A stretch of DNA of 64,000 nt from a virus, in the IMG/VR virus record IMGVR_UViG_3300046170_000446, positions 1 through 64,000 of that record, one strand, 5' to 3'. Under the pieces are notes generated by a model that had not been told where the DNA came from, made no database searches, and was given only the letters and a program-made list of their open reading frames with translations. Below are positions 23,702-52,058 of this stretch, piece after piece (the stretch's first letter is position 1; the number at the start of each line of letters is the position of its first letter). A program made the position numbers and the translations under genes.

Positions 23702-26155
23702 ATGAGCGACAAGAAATCAGAGTCTAACCTCCCAAATGGAGGCTATATCCTAACTGACGGTAGCAACTACGGGCTAGATGGCTTTCAGTTTGACACCGAA
23801 TACGGCGGAGGTGTCCTTGAGAAGGCTCGCCTACCCGAAGCCCACGGACTCAGTAGCTTACCCGAAGGTATCTTCCGTGAAGAAAATCAAATCGGACTCA
23901 GTGATCTCCCCGTAGGGATCGAGCAAGAGGAGGGTGTAGGCGATCTTGGAAGCTACCTCAAAGAGGCTTCCGCGACACTCAGCGACCTCAATTGGTTAGA
24001 GGGTGTTCAACAAGACCCTGAGCGCCTACCCATTAATAATCCTCATGAGATCATCAAAGAGCTAGAAGAGGCTTGGGGAGTCCATAATCGCACCAACGGG
24101 AAAGAGCTTGTTCCTAATAAAGTCGTGCGCCCTTATGAGAGAGACGTTTACCCTGAGTCTAAGCTACCTGGCTATGATGAGCGTAGAGCATATGCTCAGC
24201 TCGCAATGGAGAAAGCTCTCCGTGAACAGTTGCTAGGACATAGCGAAGAAAAGATCATCGCGAAGCTCGAAAAGGTCTTAAGCGGTGGAGAGCTTGCAGA
24301 GGCGCGGAGAACTCTCTTAGAAGATAAAGGGCTCGTCGGTAATGTTTACCTAAGAGCAAAAGCCTTTCCAGGTCTGCATAGGACTTCAAAGTGGGATAGT
24401 CTCATCCCTAAACTCAAGAGAGCTCAGTACATTCTTACAGACGACCCTAAACTCTTAGAGGTCGGTCGGGCTTATGGTAAGAAGATCGTCGCGTCTATCC
24501 CTTGGGGAGAGGCTTTCAAAGCCTACGCGCCTCGCCTTAATATTAAGCTCAACAGGAAGCTCGCTAGCTCTAACAAGAGGGAAGCTCTCCGTGAGGCATT
24601 TTTAGCACAAGAAAACATCCATGTGCGCGAGTCTCACCTACCCGTACAAGCAGACCCCTCGAATTCTATAAGTTTGAAGACCGCTAAGTCTAATCTTAGA
24701 GTGGCGGAGGTACATCAAGAGGTTTTCCGTAAGCTCTCCGCTGAGGAACAGCTCCGTACTAAGGTAGACGCTCAAATCTCTAAGTGGGCTTCGCAGGGGC
24801 TCTTAGACGAGCGGGCTCAAAAGAGACTCGCGAAAGGAAACGCAGACGCAAAAGAGACTCTGCGCGTTGCCGCTTCTCTTGTACAACTCAAAGTCGCTAA
24901 GTCTGCTCGCTTCCGTAAATACGCAGGTGAGGGTGTCAACTATCAGCCTCTTAATATTAGAGAGGCTTCACAGGCTTGGGAAGCTCTAGAGCAGTTTGAG
25001 GCACAGGCTGAAGACAAGATGCTCCGCCAAGCAAAAGAGTTTGTCGATGAGCTTGTAGACACAGGGATGATCAAAGGCTCTCAAGGCCGTAAGATACTCG
25101 CCTCTGACCTCAACGGCAAAGATCGACTCAAGGTAGCCAGCGCAGTGCTCGCTAAGAATATGGCGAGAGCGGATCAGAGAGTCGCTAAGATTAAGGTCGC
25201 TAACTATGATGGACTTGGTAATGAAGTTACTGAGCACATCTCTAAGATTAAGACTCACACTGAAAGCGATCTCGCAAGCCTTGAAGACCAGCGCGTAAAG
25301 CTCGCACAGCTTCAAGCTCTCGACGGAGATAACCAAGCCTTGATCACTAAACAGGCTTCTGAGTATCTTGAGCGAGCGCGGAAGAGCGGGCTCGTCAACA
25401 AGTCTCAATACAAGAAGTTAGCTTCTCTTGATGCCTCTCCTGAGCGTAAGATTAGCCTGATTACTGCTGTAATCGAGCATAGCACCCGCACTAAGGTTGC
25501 GAGTAGCACACCTGTCGCAGAGAAGAAAACCTATGAGGGTGTCGCCTTTACTGCCCACGTCAGTGAAAAGGTAGAGAAGGTAGCCTCTCAGAAAGAGCTG
25601 TCTGCGGTCAACAACTGGGTATCCCGTCAGATGAACGAGGGCGCTATCGGTAATGAGCTAGATCAGCTCATCCACGCTAAGTTTAGCGACCAAATGATTA
25701 AGCAAGCCTCTGAGCAGATTGACTCACTCCGTAAAGCACATGAAGGGCTTGCAGGAGTTGTCTACGTAGACGCTAAAGCGTATGCCTCTAAAGACGGCAC
25801 TACGGGTTGTGATGAGGGCGCTCTGCGCCATAGGGCTAACCCGATCAAGTTTCTTCTCAAGATGGATAAGTGCAAAGGCTGTGTATTCGCTAATGCCGAT
25901 GGTGTCTGTCAGAAGTACAATAAGACTCTCGTTAAGGATGTTCCTGTAGAGGACAGAGAAGGCTATCAGCGCGAGAGCATAAGATTAGCCAATGCTCCTG
26001 ACCATGAGATCACCGCATCTCTGTTCGGAAACAGCTATGACCCTAACGAGTTTAATCTAGCTAACAGTGACTTTGATAGCATCGGTTATAACTCTGAGAA
26101 GAAAGCTCAAGACAAGCTCTCTGAGGTGTTATTCGGAGGCTTTGAGATTGACTGA
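23702..26155 (+). CDS. Large helical repeat protein, putative head core/inner protein
   Basis: 817 aa, many KxAS motifs, repeated helical units, C-terminal CKGCVF...GVCQKY. Confidence 0.8.
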   Translation: MSDKKSESNLPNGGYILTDGSNYGLDGFQFDTEYGGGVLEKARLPEAHGLSSLPEGIFREENQIGLSDLPVGIEQEEGVGDLGSYLKEASATLSDLNWLEGVQQDPERLPINNPHEIIKELEEAWGVHNRTNGKELVPNKVVRPYERDVYPESKLPGYDERRAYAQLAMEKALREQLLGHSEEKIIAKLEKVLSGGELAEARRTLLEDKGLVGNVYLRAKAFPGLHRTSKWDSLIPKLKRAQYILTDDPKLLEVGRAYGKKIVASIPWGEAFKAYAPRLNIKLNRKLASSNKREALREAFLAQENIHVRESHLPVQADPSNSISLKTAKSNLRVAEVHQEVFRKLSAEEQLRTKVDAQISKWASQGLLDERAQKRLAKGNADAKETLRVAASLVQLKVAKSARFRKYAGEGVNYQPLNIREASQAWEALEQFEAQAEDKMLRQAKEFVDELVDTGMIKGSQGRKILASDLNGKDRLKVASAVLAKNMARADQRVAKIKVANYDGLGNEVTEHISKIKTHTESDLASLEDQRVKLAQLQALDGDNQALITKQASEYLERARKSGLVNKSQYKKLASLDASPERKISLITAVIEHSTRTKVASSTPVAEKKTYEGVAFTAHVSEKVEKVASQKELSAVNNWVSRQMNEGAIGNELDQLIHAKFSDQMIKQASEQIDSLRKAHEGLAGVVYVDAKAYASKDGTTGCDEGALRHRANPIKFLLKMDKCKGCVFANADGVCQKYNKTLVKDVPVEDREGYQRESIRLANAPDHEITASLFGNSYDPNEFNLANSDFDSIGYNSEKKAQDKLSEVLFGGFEID

Positions 26156-26808: not shown

Positions 26809-29064
26809 TTGTTATCTGTCAGCATTGAGAATTGGTCTAAGATATTTAAAGAGATCAGCCAAGGCGATATTAGCGTATCTGTGTCTGAGCTCCCTAATGC
26901 GATCCAGCAGGTAGTACATAGCGAGTTTGGCGATATAGACAGCCTGAGCTACGGGACGTGGTTAGAGATTTTCGCCCGTCTCGACACTGATAAGACAGGA
27001 GTCCTGGACATCTCAGGCTTCAGCAAGTTTGCGGCTAAGAAGAAGAATAATAAGTCTAAAGGTGGCGAGACTGTAACAGTCGAGTCAGGAGTGAAGTCAT
27101 TAGGTCATCTCACCAAAGATGACAAAGAGCACATGAAAAAGCGATTGGAGGAGGGGGCTTCTAAAGGAGATGTCAGGAAAGAGATCGCAGAGAAACGTAA
27201 AGAGCGCAAAGACAAGAAGAAAGAAAAGTCTAAAGAGACGAGAGGCAATTTTGATGACGAGGGGGAAGGTGTAGTACAAGACGGGGGCGACGACAAAGAT
27301 GACTACAAAACGAAGGGGAAAACCGACAAAGGTAACCCCTTCGGAGGCATTATAAACTTTGTCATCACAGAGCTCTTTGAGAAGATTTCAGGGGACAGGA
27401 CAGTTGATAGCCCTTTCCGAAAAAACATGAATGTCACTTATACCACTGTCTTAAACAACTACACCCCGAAAAAACTAGACGCACAAGAAGTAGGACTTAA
27501 AAAAGCAGAGGTGGAGGCTCTTAAAAAGAAGGAGTCCTTAGAGACAGAGGAAGAGAAGAAAAAGTATCAGAAATACGTCAGTAGAGCAAAAAATCAACTT
27601 GACGCTTTCACAAGAGGCAGATCCAAAGCAGAGGCTCACCTAAAGAAGGTCTTGAGGGCAAGACAGCGGTTTTACACCAAGATGAAAAACAACGATAGAG
27701 TCAAGGCGATTGCAGAACGCTACGCTCAAAACTATGTATCAAAAAAGTCTGAGACAGCTAAAAGAAATCGAGATGCCTTAAAACGAGAACAAACAGGGCG
27801 TACAGATACCAAATTCCTGAAACGTCTTATCAAAGCAGAGATGGACGGCAATGACATTAGTGACATGAAGCCGACCTTTAATGAAGAAAGCGGCTCGAAG
27901 AAGAAGGCTTCTGCTGACCTCACGCACGCGCACGCGCAGGCACTCGTAGACTTATACAGCTTCAAGGTAAGATTAGCGAAGCTCAGAGGCGAGCCGACTC
28001 AACAGCACCTCAATGCGCTCACCTTAGCTAAAGCGGCTAAGAGGCTCATGCGTAAACGTGCTAAAGACGACGAAACAATGTCTAATAATCTAGCCCAAAG
28101 AAACGAGACTTACGGAGAAGCAGGGATAAATTTTTCTTATGCCGTAGGGTCTAAACCAAGCATACTAAAAGAACAATCGACCAACGTTGTAAGACTAATA
28201 ACAAGAAGAGCGGAGAGCGCAGACAAAGACGCTCTGGAAGCAGTTCGTGAATGGAAAAAAGGATTAGAGGACTTCGGTCTAAAAAACAATAGAGGCGAGT
28301 GGGAATACGACAGCGACTTTTGGGACAAAGACAGCAATGGAGACTACACTGTAAAAGAAGACCGTTTAAACGAAGATGGTACAGTAAACCGTGATTGGGA
28401 TAAGGCTCAAGAGGAAGAGGAGGAGTCTCAAGATGAAGAAGAGACTCAAGAGGACGAGAAGCCTAAGCGCACTAAGCAAGAGGGCTACAAAACTCTTATG
28501 AAGAGGTTCACTAACTTCTTCTTGGACGCGGTGCTTGAGGAATTCGGCCCGAAAGACTCACGGTACGAGTCACCTTTCAGAATTGGTGCAAAGCTGACGT
28601 TTGAGTCTTTAAAAACCTACAGCACTGATAGGTATTGGGAAAAAGAGCTAGAGAACACAAAGAAGCGTCATAAGGAGTTAGAAGCTCAAGATAAAAAGCC
28701 AAGGAAGGAGCTCAACATTATCGAGGGAGAATATGAGACAAAGAAAGGTAAAGCTAAAGAGCTTTACGAGTTAGCTCTTAAAGACCTCGGTAAAGCTAGA
28801 GAGAAATACGCCAAAAACGCGAGAAAAGTTTACGATCTCGCTCAAGATAAGATGGATCTCAAAGGCCAAGACGAGAACGACAGAGGCTGGACTTGTGCTG
28901 GACTCGTAGCAGGTATCCAAAACAAGTATGGCGATGCGAAGGATAAGAAAGCTCAGACCATTAACGAAGAGCTAAGTCTTAATCTTAAGTCTAAGAAGAA
29001 AGATGGGGATAAGGGCGAGGGTGGAGACACATCTAAGAGCACCAAGAGCACCAAGAGCACCTGA
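26809..29064 (+). CDS. Large highly charged protein, putative internal/ejected virion protein; may extend to 29122
   Basis: 751 aa K/E/D-rich; EF-hand-like DTDKTGVLDISGF; KKAS; internal duplication SPFRKN/SPFRIG; the +1 frame after ACC-TGA encodes ESKS(KG)6KSK-stop. Confidence 0.8.
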   Translation: MLSVSIENWSKIFKEISQGDISVSVSELPNAIQQVVHSEFGDIDSLSYGTWLEIFARLDTDKTGVLDISGFSKFAAKKKNNKSKGGETVTVESGVKSLGHLTKDDKEHMKKRLEEGASKGDVRKEIAEKRKERKDKKKEKSKETRGNFDDEGEGVVQDGGDDKDDYKTKGKTDKGNPFGGIINFVITELFEKISGDRTVDSPFRKNMNVTYTTVLNNYTPKKLDAQEVGLKKAEVEALKKKESLETEEEKKKYQKYVSRAKNQLDAFTRGRSKAEAHLKKVLRARQRFYTKMKNNDRVKAIAERYAQNYVSKKSETAKRNRDALKREQTGRTDTKFLKRLIKAEMDGNDISDMKPTFNEESGSKKKASADLTHAHAQALVDLYSFKVRLAKLRGEPTQQHLNALTLAKAAKRLMRKRAKDDETMSNNLAQRNETYGEAGINFSYAVGSKPSILKEQSTNVVRLITRRAESADKDALEAVREWKKGLEDFGLKNNRGEWEYDSDFWDKDSNGDYTVKEDRLNEDGTVNRDWDKAQEEEEESQDEEETQEDEKPKRTKQEGYKTLMKRFTNFFLDAVLEEFGPKDSRYESPFRIGAKLTFESLKTYSTDRYWEKELENTKKRHKELEAQDKKPRKELNIIEGEYETKKGKAKELYELALKDLGKAREKYAKNARKVYDLAQDKMDLKGQDENDRGWTCAGLVAGIQNKYGDAKDKKAQTINEELSLNLKSKKKDGDKGEGGDTSKSTKSTKST

Positions 29065-37304: not shown

Positions 37305-38165
37305 ATGTCTAGGATCATCACCGCGTCACAAAGAAACAAGATCGCATCGACTCTCGACCACATTGCAGAGATTTTCGAGAAGAGTGCTTCTCAGCTCGGC
37401 ATCCCTCAGAGCGTTGGTACTGATTTCGCTTACCGTTGCGACCTCCTCTCAGACGCTATTGAGAAGAACGCAAGCAAGAACACCACCATGACTGAAGCAC
37501 GTAGATTTGACCCTTCACAGGTCGGTCAGCGCACTCAAGGCCCTCTTCGCATGGACGACGAGGACACTTACCTCAGCAATGAGTTTACAGGTGAGGAGTT
37601 CTCAGCTCTCTCAGACATGATTGAGCATGGTCACAACTTCCATGAGGTTTCTCTCCTTGAGGGTGAGACTGAGGAAGAGGATAACTTCCTCGTAGACGAG
37701 AAAGCACTCTCTAAGATGGCTTTTGATCTCTTTGCCTCTGACGAAGACGAAGAGGATGAGGATGAGGACGAAGAGGATGAGGGCGAGGATGAGGACGAGG
37801 ACGAAGAGGATGAGGGCGAGGATGAGGACGAGGATGAGGACGAGGATGAGGATGAGGACGAGAAGACTCAAAAGAAAGCTCGCCTGATCCTCGCGGCACT
37901 TAATCTTATCGCCTCTGAAGAGGACGACGAAGATGAGGACGAGGATGAGGACGACGAAGATGAAGACGACGAGGATGAAGACGACGAGGATGAAGACGAC
38001 GATGGTAAATCTGCCGTCCAGCACCTCAAGCCTGCTCACCGCCGAAAGCTCAGCCAGTCTGCGAAGAAAGCTCACAGAAGCACTCGTAAGAAGCAAACAC
38101 AGTCTACGCGCACTCAGCAGAACAAAGCCCGTAAGCGTTCACGCTCTCGCGGAGCAAACGTCTAA
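37305..38165 (+). CDS. Putative head core protein with long D/E tracts and basic tail
   Basis: IITAS, KIAS, KSAS, KNAS; two poly-D/E tracts. Confidence 0.8.
   Translation: MSRIITASQRNKIASTLDHIAEIFEKSASQLGIPQSVGTDFAYRCDLLSDAIEKNASKNTTMTEARRFDPSQVGQRTQGPLRMDDEDTYLSNEFTGEEFSALSDMIEHGHNFHEVSLLEGETEEEDNFLVDEKALSKMAFDLFASDEDEEDEDEDEEDEGEDEDEDEEDEGEDEDEDEDEDEDEDEKTQKKARLILAALNLIASEEDDEDEDEDEDDEDEDDEDEDDEDEDDDGKSAVQHLKPAHRRKLSQSAKKAHRSTRKKQTQSTRTQQNKARKRSRSRGANV
37739..38003 (+). repeat. Coding GAN-triplet low-complexity repeat (poly-Asp/Glu)
   Basis: GATGAGGACGAG-type repeats in two blocks. Confidence 0.85.
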
Positions 38166-40075: not shown

Positions 40076-41710
40076 ATGTCTAGGAACCGATTGACTTGGC
40101 GAAGTGCTTCAGCACACCCTGCCACTCCTTGGGAGGGTCACACCCACCCTGCATCTTACGAAGACCCTGTAGAGGATGCTTACGGGATCGACTCTGACTT
40201 TGGCGCAGAGGTAACCGAAGGCCCTTACAGCAACGGTATGCCTCCTGCTTCACAGGGTTGGGTTTCTGACCACCCTGCGTCACGTCGCCACCTTGAGCGT
40301 AAGGCTTCGCGCTGTATTCAAATCGCACAATCAATGCTCGGTAAGACTGCAAGCGCCCTTGAGATTGAAGACCAAGCTCTCGCACTTATGGACTTGAGCG
40401 ACGGTGAGGTTAACCGTACTCTGTCTCGCGTAGCTTCTTCTTTCATGGTCGCTGAGGACATGGAGGATGACGTTGAGGCTGGAATGTTCGCTGAGGACAT
40501 GGAGGCTCACGATCTCTTCGACGCGTATGACGTTGAGGGAAACGGCATGATTAGCCGTAACGAGTTTGGTGGCTCTGATGATGTCTTCGACGCAATCGAC
40601 CTCGATAATGACGAGATGCTCTCACCTTACGAGGTAAGCCAAGGTCTTGGTCAAGGTTTCTCAAGAGAAGACGACCTCTCTAACGTAGAGAATGAGCTCG
40701 ACTACCTTGAGGATGAGGTCGAGGCTCTTGAGGATGAGCTCGGTATTACTGCGGAAGATATCGAAGCTGACCGCAAATGGGGTATGAAAGGCCCTCGCGG
40801 TAAGTACAAAGGTGGCAAAGGCTACTTCTCCGCTCCTAAAGCTCGCAAAGGCATTAAGCAACCTCTTAAGCCTTGGGTTCGCGGTGGCGCAAACAAAGCT
40901 ATGAAGCAGTACAACCGCCAATACGGTGCTACCTACCTTGATGATAGCGGTCAGCGTAAGACTAAGGGTCGTAAGAAGCTCAGAAGAAACAAGAAGGCTT
41001 CTGAAGAGCTGGCTACTTACATGGATCTTCCTCAGAACCACGCGCACGCTTTCTACTCAGACGATGAGTCTAACAACTTCGAGATAACCGCAAGTGATAT
41101 CGAGGCTGAGCTCGCTTCTATCGCAGACGAGATCGAGGCTTGTGAAGCAGAGATGCAAATGGCAAACGAGATTGAGGCTTGCGGTATGTATGCTGAGGAC
41201 ACTGAGGCTATGCACACGGCTGAGGACATCGAGGCTGACCTTTTCGCTGAGGATGTTGATGCTATGCACTGCGCTGACGACGACGACGACGACGACAGCG
41301 ACGTTGAGGCTATGCTCGCAGAGATGCTTGCTGAGCTAGACGGAGACACTGAGGCTTGTACTGCTGAGGATACTGAGGCTATGCAGATGGCTGAGGACAC
41401 CGACCTTAACGCATCTCTTGAGCCCCACGCAGATGACAACATGGGACTCAACGCTGGCGATATGGAAGCTGACGAAACTCTCGCGGCTCTCTTCAAAGCG
41501 GCATCTGACGATGATGACGAAGACGAAGACGAGACTCAAGACGAGGACGAGTCTGAGGGTACTTCTAAGAAAGCATCTCTCAAGCCACAAGGTCGCAAGT
41601 CTAGCGAGGGCGTTAAGTCACTCGGCGCGATCAACAAAGAGGCTTCAAGCGAGGTTAATGATCTCGCTAAACTTTGGGAGTCTGCACCTGACGTAAAGGC
41701 TTTCTTCTGA
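40076..41710 (+). CDS. Probable scaffold/core protein with EF-hand pair and embedded basic segment
   Basis: Very acidic AEDxEA repeats; DVEGNGMISRNE and DLDNDEMLSPYE; many KxAS; high-expression codon bias; C-terminal LWESAPDVKAFF. Confidence 0.75.
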   Translation: MSRNRLTWRSASAHPATPWEGHTHPASYEDPVEDAYGIDSDFGAEVTEGPYSNGMPPASQGWVSDHPASRRHLERKASRCIQIAQSMLGKTASALEIEDQALALMDLSDGEVNRTLSRVASSFMVAEDMEDDVEAGMFAEDMEAHDLFDAYDVEGNGMISRNEFGGSDDVFDAIDLDNDEMLSPYEVSQGLGQGFSREDDLSNVENELDYLEDEVEALEDELGITAEDIEADRKWGMKGPRGKYKGGKGYFSAPKARKGIKQPLKPWVRGGANKAMKQYNRQYGATYLDDSGQRKTKGRKKLRRNKKASEELATYMDLPQNHAHAFYSDDESNNFEITASDIEAELASIADEIEACEAEMQMANEIEACGMYAEDTEAMHTAEDIEADLFAEDVDAMHCADDDDDDDSDVEAMLAEMLAELDGDTEACTAEDTEAMQMAEDTDLNASLEPHADDNMGLNAGDMEADETLAALFKAASDDDDEDEDETQDEDESEGTSKKASLKPQGRKSSEGVKSLGAINKEASSEVNDLAKLWESAPDVKAFF

Positions 41711-41915: not shown

Positions 41916-42587
41916 ATGGCTATGCTTGGACAGGCAAGTGGTGGTTTCACAGAGTCTTCATCTTCATTGCGTCTTCTTCACGTCGGTGTCCGTAACACCG
42001 TCGGTGTTTTGACTGATGATGCGTTTACTCAGACGAACCCACCCGTCGTTAGTACCGCAGGTACTGTCTCAGATAACGTCCCCACCACCGTACTTGGTGT
42101 TCTTGGTGGCTCAGTTGCTTTCTCACGTCCTGACGCAGGTTCAAACTTCGTCGGTGGCAACGTAGAAGGTCTTGCTGTCGCTACTCAAGAGACTTTTGTA
42201 CGTCCTCTTGGTGTCTTTCTTAACAACGCGAATGGTCGCCCATTCGAGAACCTTCCTGCTCAGGCGAGCGGTAAAGGCCCTTACGTTTCTGCGCAGGGTA
42301 CTTACGCAAACTCTCTCTTTGAGACTCAGGCTCTCGACACTGACGGTGCGAACGTCGCTCAAGGCGCTGACCTCACCTACACCGTAGGTGCAGAGCTCAT
42401 CGCTTCTCGTAACGGCTACCTCATGCCTCGTAACACCATCGACTCAGCAGGCGCTGTCGCATCTATCGACATCGCGGCTATTTCGGCTGAGGTTGAGCAT
42501 GGTCGTACTGCTTCTACCACCATCGGTATCCTTAAGATGCCTGCTGACTCGACTCAAAACGAGTTGGTCTACGACCAGCGCATTTAA
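41916..42587 (+). CDS. Capsid decoration/cement protein
   Basis: Immediately upstream of MCP, strong high-expression codon bias, beta-rich, RPLGVF..N..G.PFEN.PA.ASGK. Confidence 0.7.
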   Translation: MAMLGQASGGFTESSSSLRLLHVGVRNTVGVLTDDAFTQTNPPVVSTAGTVSDNVPTTVLGVLGGSVAFSRPDAGSNFVGGNVEGLAVATQETFVRPLGVFLNNANGRPFENLPAQASGKGPYVSAQGTYANSLFETQALDTDGANVAQGADLTYTVGAELIASRNGYLMPRNTIDSAGAVASIDIAAISAEVEHGRTASTTIGILKMPADSTQNELVYDQRI

Positions 42588-43623: not shown

Positions 43624-44151
43624 ATGATGAGGATCTTAGCCCTATTAATACTCTCTCTCCCTATTAGCTCTTATGCTAATGACCACAACCCTTGGGAAGT
43701 GAGCTTAGGCACTACTCAAATGTTCTTTGGGTGGTATGGTGAGGACTCCTCTCAAGTGCCTACCTCCTCTGCTACTCTAATCTTATCGAGAGAGCTTATC
43801 GGAGGTCTTTCCGCATGGGGAGTATTCAACTTGCCTCTAACTCCTAACAAAAGAGTTACCGCAGAGGGTGTGATTGAGGACACCATTACACTGCCTACCC
43901 TAATGTTAGGTCTAAGCTATGAGGCTCTGAGTTATCAATACGACGAGCGCAAAAGAATAGGCTTAGACGCAGGGCTTTCTGTAGGAAGACCGCTAACTCT
44001 AAAGGGTCAAGTGTTCCCTGTAGGGGCTTTTCGCCTCAAGCTCGTTAAAGATAACGAGAACACTGTCTACGTAGGGTTGACCACCTCACCTTACAACCCT
44101 GAAGGTGATTTGGTTTGGGGACTAATCTACGGAATGGGTACTAAATTTTAA
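43624..44151 (+). CDS. Signal-peptide protein, probable small outer-membrane beta-barrel
   Basis: Cleavable signal (..SSYA/ND), alternating beta strands, C-terminal WGLIYGMGTKF ending in Phe. Confidence 0.7.
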   Translation: MMRILALLILSLPISSYANDHNPWEVSLGTTQMFFGWYGEDSSQVPTSSATLILSRELIGGLSAWGVFNLPLTPNKRVTAEGVIEDTITLPTLMLGLSYEALSYQYDERKRIGLDAGLSVGRPLTLKGQVFPVGAFRLKLVKDNENTVYVGLTTSPYNPEGDLVWGLIYGMGTKF

Positions 44152-45174
44152 AGTCCACAGGTGCTCTCTAAAAGCACTCTAGCTACCTCATAAGGGTCAG
44201 CGTTAGCGTTAGGTCGCCTGTCTTCTAAATACCCACAACCTGCGTCATAAACATTAGCAGGGATACGAACAGAAGCGGTGCGGTCTGACACTCCCCACTT
44301 AAACTCGTCGTAGCGACACGTCTCATGGTGGCCTGTAAGTCGGATTTCGTACCCTGCGCCGTACACATCTAAGTGCTCTTGTACGCGACCGCTAATCTTA
44401 AACAGTGCGTCCTCGATATGTGTCATCCCGTTTTCTTGCCTCATAGCTTCAGTAGAGAAGTTAGTGTGCATACCCGCGCCGTTCCAATCACCAGGTACAG
44501 GCTTAGGGTCTAAGGTTGCAGAGAGCCCGTAATCTTCACCCAAGCGGTATAATAACCAACGTGCTATCCACAGATCATCACTTGCCCTGAGCGCATCTCC
44601 TTCAGGGCCTCCGATTTGAAACTCCCACTGTCCAGGCATGACCTCAGCATTAATGCCTGTTAACATTAGGTCTGCCTCTAAGCAAACTTTCATGTGATGC
44701 TCTACGAGAGCTCGACCGTACACCTCATCAGCGCCTACTCCACAATAATAAGGGCCTTGCTCAGCGGGAAAACGTCTCTCTGAAGGGAAGCCCAACGGAC
44801 GAGAGCCTTTATAGAGAGTGTACTCTTGCTCGAAGCCGAACCAAGCCTTTTCTTTATCTGCTCCGTTAGACAAGACCTCTCTTAAGAGCGCCCTTGTGTT
44901 GGTAGAGTGAGGTTTCTTATCTGCCCCATAGACTTCGCACATTAAGAGGATAGCTCCTTCTCCCCTAATAGGGTCTTTATATGCTCTCACGGGCTTCAAG
45001 ATGCAATCTGAGCTCCCTCCCTCCGCCTGTGAGGTAGAAGACCCATCAAACTGCCACTCAGGGAGGTTTACCGCTAGAGGGACGACCTCACCCCCCGATG
45101 ATCTTTGTCTTAGAACGTAATCTAGCGGTAGGCTTAGATCCGTCAACCCATATGTATTCAACTGCTCTTTTCAT
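44148..45174 (-). CDS. glnII: Glutamine synthetase type II (one surplus base in G6 run at 45091-45096)
   Basis: True N-terminus MKRAVEYIWVDG...LRSKTK from ATG 45174; WQFDGSST, GFEQEY, NAEVMPGQWEFQ, DWNGAGMHTNFST, YLEDRRP. Confidence 0.93.
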
Positions 45175-50639: not shown

Positions 50640-50675
50640 TTTCTTTTTTCTTTATGCGTATGTGTGTGCAAAGGA

Positions 50676-50748
50676 TGGGCAGTCAGGGATTTGAACCCTG
50701 GATCGCTCGTTTATGAGACGAGAGCCTTAACCGCTTGGCTAACTGCCC
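50676..50748 (-). tRNA. tRNA with CAT anticodon (elongator Met or Ile2), no encoded CCA
   Basis: GGGCAGT acceptor, CTCGT-CTCATAA-ACGAG anticodon arm, CAGGG-TTCAAAT-CCCTG T arm; G1:C72 paired so not initiator. Confidence 0.92.
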
Positions 50749-50978
50749 ATAACTGATTTCTCTACACTAGAAGTCTCTAAGAGAGTGTCTACTTTTTCAA
50801 TTTCTTCAGAGCTGAAGTATTTAGTCGAGCGCATGACGGCTTCTGTGGTCAACTCTAAAAGCCCGTACTTTGTCTTCAAATACTGACCTCCGACAATCAC
50901 GCACTCAGTACCTTTAGGTAAGACTACGTACTCTACGCTACCTTTCTTCCTCAGCGCCACTGCTTCCTTCACCCACAT
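50739..50978 (-). CDS. Hypothetical protein (3' end overlaps tRNA by 10 nt)
   Basis: 79-aa ORF. Confidence 0.6.
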   Translation of the reverse strand: MWVKEAVALRKKGSVEYVVLPKGTECVIVGGQYLKTKYGLLELTTEAVMRSTKYFSSEEIEKVDTLLETSSVEKSVMGS

Positions 50979-51342
50979 CTTCTACCTCCTCCAAAAACAC
51001 ATCTAAATCTTCACGAGATACGTAAATAGGATAACCCGCTCCTAGAGAGCCCTCGATATTGTAATAGTAATACTCAAGAGCTTCTTCATACGCGGTGTCT
51101 TCAGACTCCCCGTAAGTAGGGTCACTTAGCCAAGACTTAGCGAGTATATCTATTATCCTATCCTTATCGTAGACAGCTACCCTGTACCCATTAACGTGAG
51201 ACATTCCTACTAGGGCGCTGTCGTACATTTTTCTTGGTAAAAAAACAACATTATCGCCGTCGTAATCTAATAGCTCAGGGGTGGGGCGCGCGCTCTGAGA
51301 CTCAGGGGCATTCATCTTCTTTATGACCTCAAGACACCACAT
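50938..51342 (-). CDS. Hypothetical phage protein
   Basis: YDSALVG....AVYD..RII..L....EEALEYY.YNI.G motif, which I recall from other phage ORFs. Confidence 0.8.
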   Translation of the reverse strand: MWCLEVIKKMNAPESQSARPTPELLDYDGDNVVFLPRKMYDSALVGMSHVNGYRVAVYDKDRIIDILAKSWLSDPTYGESEDTAYEEALEYYYYNIEGSLGAGYPIYVSREDLDVFLEEVEDVGEGSSGAEEER

Positions 51343-51365
51343 AGTGCTTATCCTTTGCGTAAGAA

Positions 51366-51437
51366 TGGGTCGTCAGGGACTCGAACCCTGAACCAATGGA
51401 TTAAAAGTCCACTGCTCTACCATTGAGCTAACAACCC
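51366..51437 (-). tRNA. tRNA-Lys(UUU), no encoded CCA
   Basis: GGGTTGT acceptor, GTGGA-CTTTTAA-TCCAT, CAGGG-TTCGAGT-CCCTG. Confidence 0.95.
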
Positions 51438-51572
51438 AAAAGGGCTTTCAGTTAATGCCCTGAAGTGTATCCTGTCAAGACGTTACTTTAAAACGTGATA
51501 AAGTATCGTGCTTACGGTCAAGATGTAAAAAAACACGGAGATGTTAGGCAGTATCTGTTCAGCAGGCATCTC

Positions 51573-51830
51573 TCAATAGTCCTCAAAGCCCTTAGCTTGA
51601 AGATTAGACACCTTCACGTCTTGAGAAGAAGCGACCTCTGAAAACACCTCTTCGGCGCTCTCCCTTGACTTACACGACAAAGACATTCCGAAAAGAAATT
51701 CTTCACCGTTACCGTAAACATCAATGAAGCAGGTGTTATTGGGAGTTGTTGTTAAAGTAACCGCTACCTCTGTACACCTCTCACCCCACGCAACGTCCGT
51801 AGTAGGAGCGGTCTGCTTCTTAACTATCAT
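51573..51830 (-). CDS. Hypothetical protein
   Basis: 85-aa ORF with AGGAG RBS. Confidence 0.7.
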   Translation of the reverse strand: MIVKKQTAPTTDVAWGERCTEVAVTLTTTPNNTCFIDVYGNGEEFLFGMSLSCKSRESAEEVFSEVASSQDVKVSNLQAKGFEDY

Positions 51831-51969
51831 TTGATCTCCTAATTTTCTTTACTACTCGCTCTAAGATTATAACAAGCCTTGAAGACACTCGATGTATTTG
51901 AACACCTAACAATACAAACCCTGCACTGGATAACATAGCAAAGAGCGCGTCGAGGTCTACACCGTCCAC
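51820..51969 (-). CDS. Small single-TM protein
   Basis: GTG 51969 after AGGAG; MDGVDLDALFAMLSSAGFVLLGVQIH...basic tail. Confidence 0.55.
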   Translation of the reverse strand: MDGVDLDALFAMLSSAGFVLLGVQIHRVSSRLVIILERVVKKIRRSNDS

Positions 51970-51986
51970 TTTTAGGGCTCCTTTTA

Positions 51987-52058
51987 CGCGCCTGGCAGGG
52001 GTCGAACCTGCGACCAATGGCTTAGAAGGCCACTGCTCTTCCACTGAGCTACAAACGC
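51987..52058 (-). tRNA. tRNA-Arg(UCU), no encoded CCA
   Basis: GCGTTTG acceptor, GTGGC-CTTCTAA-GCCAT, GCAGG-TTCGACC-CCTGC. Confidence 0.95.

Follow-up and report, generated by a model that had tools for sequence, protein, structure and literature searches.

A candidate prohead scaffolding protein with an EF-hand pair and a lineage-specific basic insert in an uncultured jumbo phage related to Bacillus phage G

The gene and its setting

We analysed the first 64 kb (the window) of the linear IMG/VR record IMGVR_UViG_3300046170_000446 (105,117 bp; CheckV completeness 27%) and, in it, the open reading frame (ORF) at positions 40076-41710. It encodes a putative prohead scaffolding protein, whose long acidic middle holds a pair of EF-hand loops and a strongly basic insert. 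Judged by sequence comparison, the source is an uncultured jumbo phage related to Bacillus phage G and to LR745208, an uncultured phage of 485 kb. Complete relatives have genomes of 290-375 kb.

A scan of IMG/VR found 317 relatives of the scaffold gene, and 80 related loci were fetched. A further 39 homologues of the protein were found in the protein collection. The initial annotation had placed the protein among scaffolds by its position, and this position is invariant: in all 80 loci the gene lies between the genes for the head maturation protease and the capsid protein. The complete order, namely a gene for a 107-amino acid (aa) protein, the protease, the scaffold, a 223-aa protein and the capsid protein, is the same in 80 of 80 loci. 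Genes for the large terminase subunit and the portal protein lie upstream of the protease gene.

The EF-hand module

The first loop, DVEGNGMISRNE, occupies residues 152-163 (nucleotides 40529-40564) and the second, DLDNDEMLSPYE, residues 175-186 (nucleotides 40598-40633). As noted in the initial annotation, both have aspartate at position 1, a hydrophobic residue at position 8 and glutamate at position 12. In the whole protein they are recognised by the Pfam families EF-hand_6 (PF13405; 31.0 bits, cut-off 25) and EF-hand_1 (PF00036; 25.5 bits, cut-off 25.4), and the scores rise to 38.4 and 32.9 bits, respectively, when the module is submitted in isolation. A relaxed pair of loops spaced by 22-24 residues occurs in only 0.16% of 20,000 shuffles of the scaffold protein.

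The module can be aligned in the window protein and 19 homologues over 67 columns without a single gap, whereas its flanks cannot be aligned. Identity to the window's module is 34-52%, and 91% for the close relative L004. All 20 modules match Pfam EF-hand families, the best E-value being 4.6e-13. Ten residues are invariant (H145, D149, Y151, D152, G166, S167, F171, D175, G190 and G192), among them the aspartate at position 1 of each loop; positions 3, 5, 8 and 12 are conserved. Exceptions at position 12 were observed in five homologues, where aspartate replaces glutamate in one first and four second loops. Of 55 distinct IMG/VR scaffolds, 22 carry the pair of loops, with exactly 23 residues from one loop start to the next.

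The AlphaFold model of the isolated module is confident, with a predicted local distance difference test score (pLDDT) of 82-90 over its residues 11-50. Short strands at residues 24-25 and 46-47 correspond to positions 7-8 of the two loops. When this model was submitted to Foldseek, the top matches listed were all EF-hand proteins or EF-hand-based constructs, for example calmodulin, calcineurin B, CRACR2a and SCaMC. Their probabilities were 0.89-1.00 (mostly 0.9-1.0) and the template modelling scores (TM-scores) normalised by the query 0.5-0.61; the E-values are weak (0.025-0.1) because the query is short. The module is thus a conserved, foldable EF-hand domain, and the assignment made in the initial annotation holds in Pfam, in the conservation of ligand positions and in the predicted fold. 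Most likely it binds a divalent cation, Ca2+ or possibly Mg2+, and folds into a small lobe. The response of the scaffold to Ca2+ that the initial annotation proposed is a hypothesis.

The closest named relative of the module was found outside phages. Profile comparison identifies it as a homologue of the EF-hand domain at the C-terminus of PRK12309-type transaldolases: hhalign of the module against the transaldolase tails gave 99.7% and an E-value of 1.5e-26 over 57 ungapped columns, and positions 326-386 of NF008965 match the module with an E-value of 1.5e-11. The phage protein does not belong to the enzyme family itself, as it scores 43.9-47 bits on the C-terminal tail of the PRK12309 model only, and membership needs at least 550 bits over the whole protein. 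Transaldolases with the EF-hand tail are found in cyanobacteria, Myxococcota and some other phyla. A literature search on this transaldolase domain found no paper on its function. A single-sequence search for longer module-bearing proteins returned close relatives only.

Another EF-like loop was observed in the window at 26959-27030 on the plus strand, within a 751-aa ORF (26809-29064). This single loop, DTDKTGVLDISG, is degenerate, with glycine at position 12, and scores 18.4 bits, below the cut-off.

Architecture of the scaffold family

In all homologues the BLAST alignments cover residues 1-125 and approximately 495-544, and the middle is acidic, variable and cannot be aligned. Scaffold lengths range from 342 to 853 aa across the loci, with the N-terminus 32-48% identical. 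The full-length AlphaFold model, built with 40 homologues, has a mean pLDDT of 55 and is confident in two places only, a core of three helices in residues 67-126 (67-88, 94-104 and 109-126; pLDDT 87-92 over residues 71-120) and one helix in residues 339-368. A Foldseek search with this low-confidence model against viral structures (BFVD) gave TM-scores below 0.12, which are meaningless.

The acidic repeats of the AEDxEA type that were pointed out in the initial annotation were recovered: eight such hexamers flank the basic segment. The repeat region varies in length through insertions and deletions among close relatives. A recent origin by tandem duplication of DNA was considered and rejected, as there is no tandem repeat on the DNA level and the repeats are degenerate repeats of the protein. 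The C-terminal tail that follows the last candidate protease site retains the invariant residues L530, L533, W534 and P538.

The position of the gene, the composition of its product, the tolerant middle and the conserved tail together suggest a scaffolding (core) protein. The N-terminal helical domain (residues 1-125) probably drives self-association, the long acidic and largely disordered middle probably fills the prohead, and the tail (residues 524-544), by analogy, probably tethers the scaffold to the capsid protein. The EF-hand pair and the basic segment, the latter in one sub-lineage only, would be two optional cassettes in the middle part.

The [KR]xA[ST] motif

The basic segment ends at the tetrapeptide KKAS, which the initial annotation had singled out as a site. 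This tetrapeptide belongs to a strongly overrepresented pattern: [KR][KR]A[ST] occurs 92 times in 35 non-redundant homologues, compared with 2.7 copies expected from shuffles. Some copies form conserved columns and others are scattered in the variable regions behind acidic runs. The wider pattern [KR]xA[ST] occurs eight times in the window's scaffold (0.7 expected), and in the genes of the clamp loader, the processivity factor and the helicase it is at or below expectation. In 54 of 55 scaffolds the final copy is found 21-25 residues before the C-terminus. The scaffold thus has an x-x-Ala-Ser/Thr motif close to its C-terminus and ahead of a conserved tail, the arrangement of an assemblin-type site.

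In herpesviruses, a cut at such a motif near the C-terminus, between alanine and serine or threonine, releases the scaffold from the capsid protein (PMC4498786). The enrichment and placement of [KR]xA[ST] make it a likely candidate site of the neighbouring protease, which is the presumed processing enzyme of the scaffold. Most homologues of the protease have a copy of the motif right behind their own catalytic domain. The protease would cut between alanine and serine or threonine, detaching the tail and reducing the scaffold to about nine pieces. The predicted fragments are 1-11, 12-77, 78-92, 93-120, 121-308, 309-476, 477-500, 501-523 and 524-544. The acidic repeats fall into fragment 309-476, which has a net charge of -53. 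Fragment 121-308, of 188 aa, would keep the EF-hand module and the basic segment together; its EF-hand half has a net charge of -37 and the basic segment +24, giving a total of -13.

Two other proteins of the window are rich in the motif. The 817-aa product of 23702-26155 (plus strand), which matches no family, has ten copies of [KR]xA[ST] against 1.2 expected and may be an internal head protein or polyprotein that undergoes heavy processing. The 286-aa product of 37305-38165 (plus strand) is hyper-acidic, with long runs of aspartate and glutamate, and has three copies against 0.3 expected, all of them KxAS motifs within residues 1-57. This product is a possible second core protein of the prohead.

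The basic segment

The basic segment was described in the initial annotation as about 75 aa long and ending at KKAS. It comprises 76 aa (nucleotides 40772-40999) with 26 lysines and arginines, two acidic residues and 12 glycines, giving a net charge of +24, and directly precedes the serine of KKAS (306-309). The segment is conserved only in the close relatives of the window's scaffold (P0001-P0006 and L004). A hidden Markov model of it found nothing in the other scaffolds; a search of 1.84 billion representative proteins returned its own cluster and one tandem-repeat artefact (P0040) only, and a protein-atlas search gave no usable match. In the full-length AlphaFold model the segment is of low confidence.

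Unrelated basic patches with net charges of +12 to +15 per 60 aa were observed in four other long scaffolds (L039, L040, L049 and L069), and thus basic patches recur within the acidic middle of this family. Origin of the segment by a frameshift in the acidic repeats was rejected, since the other two reading frames are neither acidic nor open.

Distribution of the EF-hand module

The module is accessory and mobile. In the tree of the neighbouring 223-aa protein, the deepest split has module-bearing scaffolds on either side, and the module must have been gained or lost at least 4-7 times. The scaffold of LR745208 has the N- and C-terminal domains and no module.

Module counts were made in nine genomes. 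Three near-complete genomes with an EF-hand scaffold contain exactly one module each. In two genomes without a module in the scaffold (CheckV completeness 100% and 63%), one module was found on a small protein. In a third genome without a scaffold module (88% complete), four EF loops were found on a different protein. Overall, five of six near-complete genomes retain a single copy of the module.

The small module proteins are encoded in open frames of 123 or 144 aa and start with a heptad-like leader. In L090 (G003:C1:246165-249353) the EF-hand module is bracketed by KKAS and RQAS, with the predicted cut between alanine and serine in each. Proteins P0041-P0044 contain two modules followed by SKLAS-type motifs.

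Two side observations concern relatives of the phage. Where the scaffold lacks the module, the small proteins of L090 and of L089 / L087:8001-8411 are 111-136 aa long and carry the leader, one EF-hand module and YLTPQEIADIMGG repeats. In L091 (G001:C1:111251-114358) a 232-aa protein has four EF-type loops spaced by only 20-21 residues, and the clade thus has another type of compact EF array.

Neighbouring genes

The coordinates of the scaffold gene, its features and its neighbours are collected in Table 1.

Table 1. Genes and protein features at the scaffold locus (positions in the window)
Feature	Coordinates	Strand	Basis
Putative prohead scaffolding (core) protein, 544 aa	40076..41710	+	ORF list; position between protease and capsid genes
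Conserved N-terminal domain, aa 1-125	40076..40450	+	all homologues align, 33-55% identity
RKAS, aa 75-78, candidate protease site	40298..40309	+	conserved column (ERKAS-KCIRIA), many homologues
Compact EF-hand pair module, aa 144-196 (about 55 aa)	40505..40663	+	Pfam, alignment, AlphaFold, Foldseek, hhalign
Basic K/R/G-rich insert, aa 233-308, up to KKAS, aa 306-309	40772..41002	+	composition
Acidic AEDxEA-type degenerate repeats, aa 335-440	41078..41395	+	motif list
KKAS, aa 498-501, candidate protease site	41567..41578	+	start of conserved C-terminal region; KKAS-LRPQP in most homologues
KEAS site, aa 521-524, and 21-aa C-terminal tail, aa 524-544, candidate capsid-binding	41636..41707	+	last [KR]xA[ST]; conservation
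Head maturation protease, 511 aa	38528..40063	+	phrog_18299 7.8e-12; phrog_2774 4e-26
223-aa protein in the position of phage G decoration protein gp26	41916..42587	+	synteny in all loci
HK97-fold major capsid protein, 292 aa	42603..43481	+	phrog_2522 4e-50; NF042927 1e-43

The protease is 40% identical to gp19 of phage G over the catalytic region (E-value 3e-21). Within this region, at residues 187-205, it contains a zinc-ribbon-like insert with cysteine and histidine residues (CSYCG...CEH), kept in gp19 as CSICG...CDH. The 223-aa protein has no BLAST similarity to gp26 of phage G, and so its putative decoration role is assigned by position.

The capsid protein is 89% identical to that of LR745208, 48% to that of Tunturiibacter phage Tunturi_5 and 38% to gp27 of Bacillus phage G. 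When the window is compared with loci L003-L083, the capsid proteins are 88-92% identical, compared with 28-75% for the protease, 49-61% for the 223-aa protein and 32-48% for the scaffold. Relative to its diverged neighbours the capsid protein is under unusually strong constraint in these loci.

The second gene downstream of the capsid gene, after an intervening 175-aa ORF, lies on the opposite strand and encodes a compact glutamine synthetase (44148-45161; Gln-synt_C 3.7e-17, Gln-synt_N 5e-10). Three tRNA genes, Met-CAT, Lys-TTT and Arg-TCT, lie at 50673-52058, also on the minus strand.

Comparison with known systems

The herpesvirus scaffold (pUL26.5 / pre-VP22a) is likewise encoded beside the maturation protease and has a conserved C-terminal tail following x-x-Ala and Ser or Thr a few tens of residues from its end. 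There is no sequence similarity between the two, however, and the residue class at the site differs, with valine, leucine or tyrosine ahead of alanine in herpesviruses and lysine or arginine in the phage scaffold. Moreover, the phage scaffold has many internal sites and a gene separate from that of the protease, and its cleavage is a prediction from motifs.

The core of the T4 prohead contains the acidic protein gp22, which is cut by the prohead protease at a short recurrent motif, and the basic internal proteins IPI-III, which are brought into the head and there lose a targeting leader by cleavage. The phage scaffold resembles this system in being an acidic core protein that is predicted to be chopped at a short recurrent motif and in having a basic part that could be cargo. 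However, the T4 motif is (L/I)-x-Glu, with the cut after glutamate, T4 has no EF-hand, the basic proteins of T4 are products of separate genes, and no homology was detected.

The module and the tails of PRK12309-type transaldolases are one and the same domain. Both contain, in this order, H-x3-F-x2-YD, loop 1, EEWGGS, F-x-ALD, loop 2 and GLG-x2-F, with the same 23-residue spacing. The difference is in the context: in bacteria the domain is attached to an enzyme, whereas in the phage it is embedded in an acidic head protein.

Among solved structures, the best matches to the module profile are lanmodulins (6MI5 and 8FNS; E-value 4e-8). Adjacent loops of lanmodulin align to the module with a single one-residue insertion, and thus the compact tandem spacing is almost the same. 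Lanmodulin passes from a disordered to a folded state on metal binding. However, it has four EF hands, with proline at position 2 of the loops, whereas the phage module has two loops, with isoleucine, leucine, phenylalanine, valine or alanine at position 2 of loop 1 and varied residues, never proline, at that of loop 2. The module is therefore not a member of the lanmodulin family.

In the nearest cultured relatives the positional equivalents of the scaffold are gp21 of phage G and gp332 of Tunturi_5 (PMC12484599). They are 486 and 528 aa long, respectively, and their genes follow that of the protease and precede that of the capsid protein. Each carries the annotation "hypothetical", and the local alignments revealed no EF-hand. 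Literature searches for EF-hands in phage scaffolds and in jumbo phages found nothing relevant, and the combination of an EF-hand domain with a lineage-specific basic insert was found by us in no described phage scaffold.

Proposed role and alternative explanations

The best explanation overall is a prohead scaffold with an EF-hand module, a basic cassette and maturation driven by the protease; we assign it a probability of about 0.65. It is probable that the protein is the scaffold of a jumbo-phage clade that is related to phage G and shares the capsid protein and the protease with it. Several observations weigh against this explanation. The scaffold has no match in PHROGs at an E-value of 0.1 or better, Pfam recognises only EF-hand families in it and no described scaffold family, and BLAST detects no similarity to the positional equivalents gp21 and gp332. 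The role of the protein is therefore a probable one. The family occurs in no cultured phage. The protease has no sequence match to any solved structure, and its annotation is on the PHROG level. On the side of the module, no other loops in the family are as degenerate as those of the window. Each misses the strict 13-residue pattern PROSITE PS00018 by one residue, because of glutamate at position 3 in loop 1 and at position 6 in loop 2; the initial annotation of a "canonical" pair was in this respect slightly too strong. Among the 20 aligned modules the pattern is satisfied by 12 first loops and 15 second loops. In the full-length model the EF-hand region has pLDDT below 50. The module is present in 22 of 55 distinct scaffolds and absent from the other 33 (about 60%), with capsid proteins about 90% identical, and so it is not needed for assembly as such. 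As one complete genome has no module at all, any role of it must be accessory. Finally, free Ca2+ in the bacterial cytoplasm is low, and so it is uncertain whether a Ca2+ switch could work there.

Alternatively, the EF loops could be a structural relic, folded or disordered, with no specific role for Ca2+ and at most a structural Mg2+, spread by domain shuffling within a tolerant acidic linker. The absence of the module from most scaffolds with a nearly identical capsid protein, the failed PROSITE pattern, the low confidence in the full-length model and the replacement of glutamate by aspartate at position 12 all fit such a history. However, ligand positions 1, 3, 5 and 12 and the 23-residue spacing are retained at 34-52% identity without an insertion or deletion, between flanks that cannot be aligned, and the module moves between the scaffold and small proteins without signs of decay, staying at one copy in most near-complete genomes. 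For these reasons we consider a relic rather unlikely. Somewhat less credit is given to the possibility that the protein is a carrier polyprotein for internal or ejected head proteins, such as the internal proteins of T4 or the inner body of phiKZ, with the EF-hand module and the basic segment as cargo. The true scaffold would then be a different acidic protein, such as the 286-aa product of 37305-38165. This possibility agrees with the occurrence of the same module on small proteins that start with a leader and have [KR]xAS motifs on the flanks of the module, with the abundance of the motif in several other head-module proteins and with the presence of a second hyper-acidic protein upstream. 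Against it, the position right between the protease and capsid genes is invariant, and the conserved tail with a site 21-25 residues from the end fits the logic of a scaffold. The two roles are not mutually exclusive, but a carrier in place of a scaffold seems unlikely.

Two alternatives concern the products of the motif. According to the initial annotation, the basic segment is set free during maturation and remains on the packaged genome as a DNA-binding peptide of its own. This is suggested by the net charge of +24 in 76 aa, by the end of the segment exactly at the predicted cut in KKAS and by the unrelated basic inserts in four other scaffolds. However, there is no [KR]xA[ST] between residues 121 and 306, that is, none at the N-terminal edge of the segment, and therefore a free basic peptide is not predicted. 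The predicted fragment includes the acidic EF-hand half and is negative overall, the segment is confined to close relatives with no relative elsewhere, and its structure is predicted with low confidence. This part of the initial annotation is not favoured, and we regard a free peptide as quite improbable. It is also conceivable that [KR][KR]A[ST] marks phosphorylation sites of a basophilic serine/threonine kinase of the R-R-x-S type and not protease sites, as the motif fits the classical consensus of such kinases and its cleavage is a prediction only. However, the motif precisely brackets the EF-hand module in L090, and the Ala-Ser/Thr pair at P1-P1' is that of the herpesvirus assemblin sites. 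Phosphorylation is thus very improbable as the explanation of the motif.

If the protein is a processed scaffold, our best guess is that the EF-hand module is a self-contained unit delivered to the interior of the head. There, by folding around metal ions, it could condense or cross-link the acidic core or act as a store of cations, and the basic half of fragment 121-308 could hold the module on DNA or on acidic partners. A more specific version, which is speculative and for which we see only a modest chance, is that the EF-hand pair is an autonomous cargo released by the protease and placed in the head once per genome, either by the scaffold or by a small leader-bearing protein. It would then serve as a cation-binding unit of the capsid that organises the counter-ions around the genome of 300-375 kb, or would be ejected with the DNA to bind Ca2+ of the host.

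Implications

Scaffolding proteins are usually regarded as simple helical or disordered fillers. The conservation of an EF-hand domain, that is, a domain of a metal-binding type, in hundreds of contigs of uncultured jumbo phages suggests that divalent cations help to build or to empty very large heads. The link to the transaldolase tails gives a name to an uncharacterised family of bacterial domains. If the predicted cleavage is true, the [KR]xA[ST] site 21-25 residues from the C-terminus, cut before the serine, would extend the logic of scaffold release in herpesviruses to a clade of phages, at the level of the site. The motif would then also offer a practical way to predict packaging and processing among the proteins of these phages.

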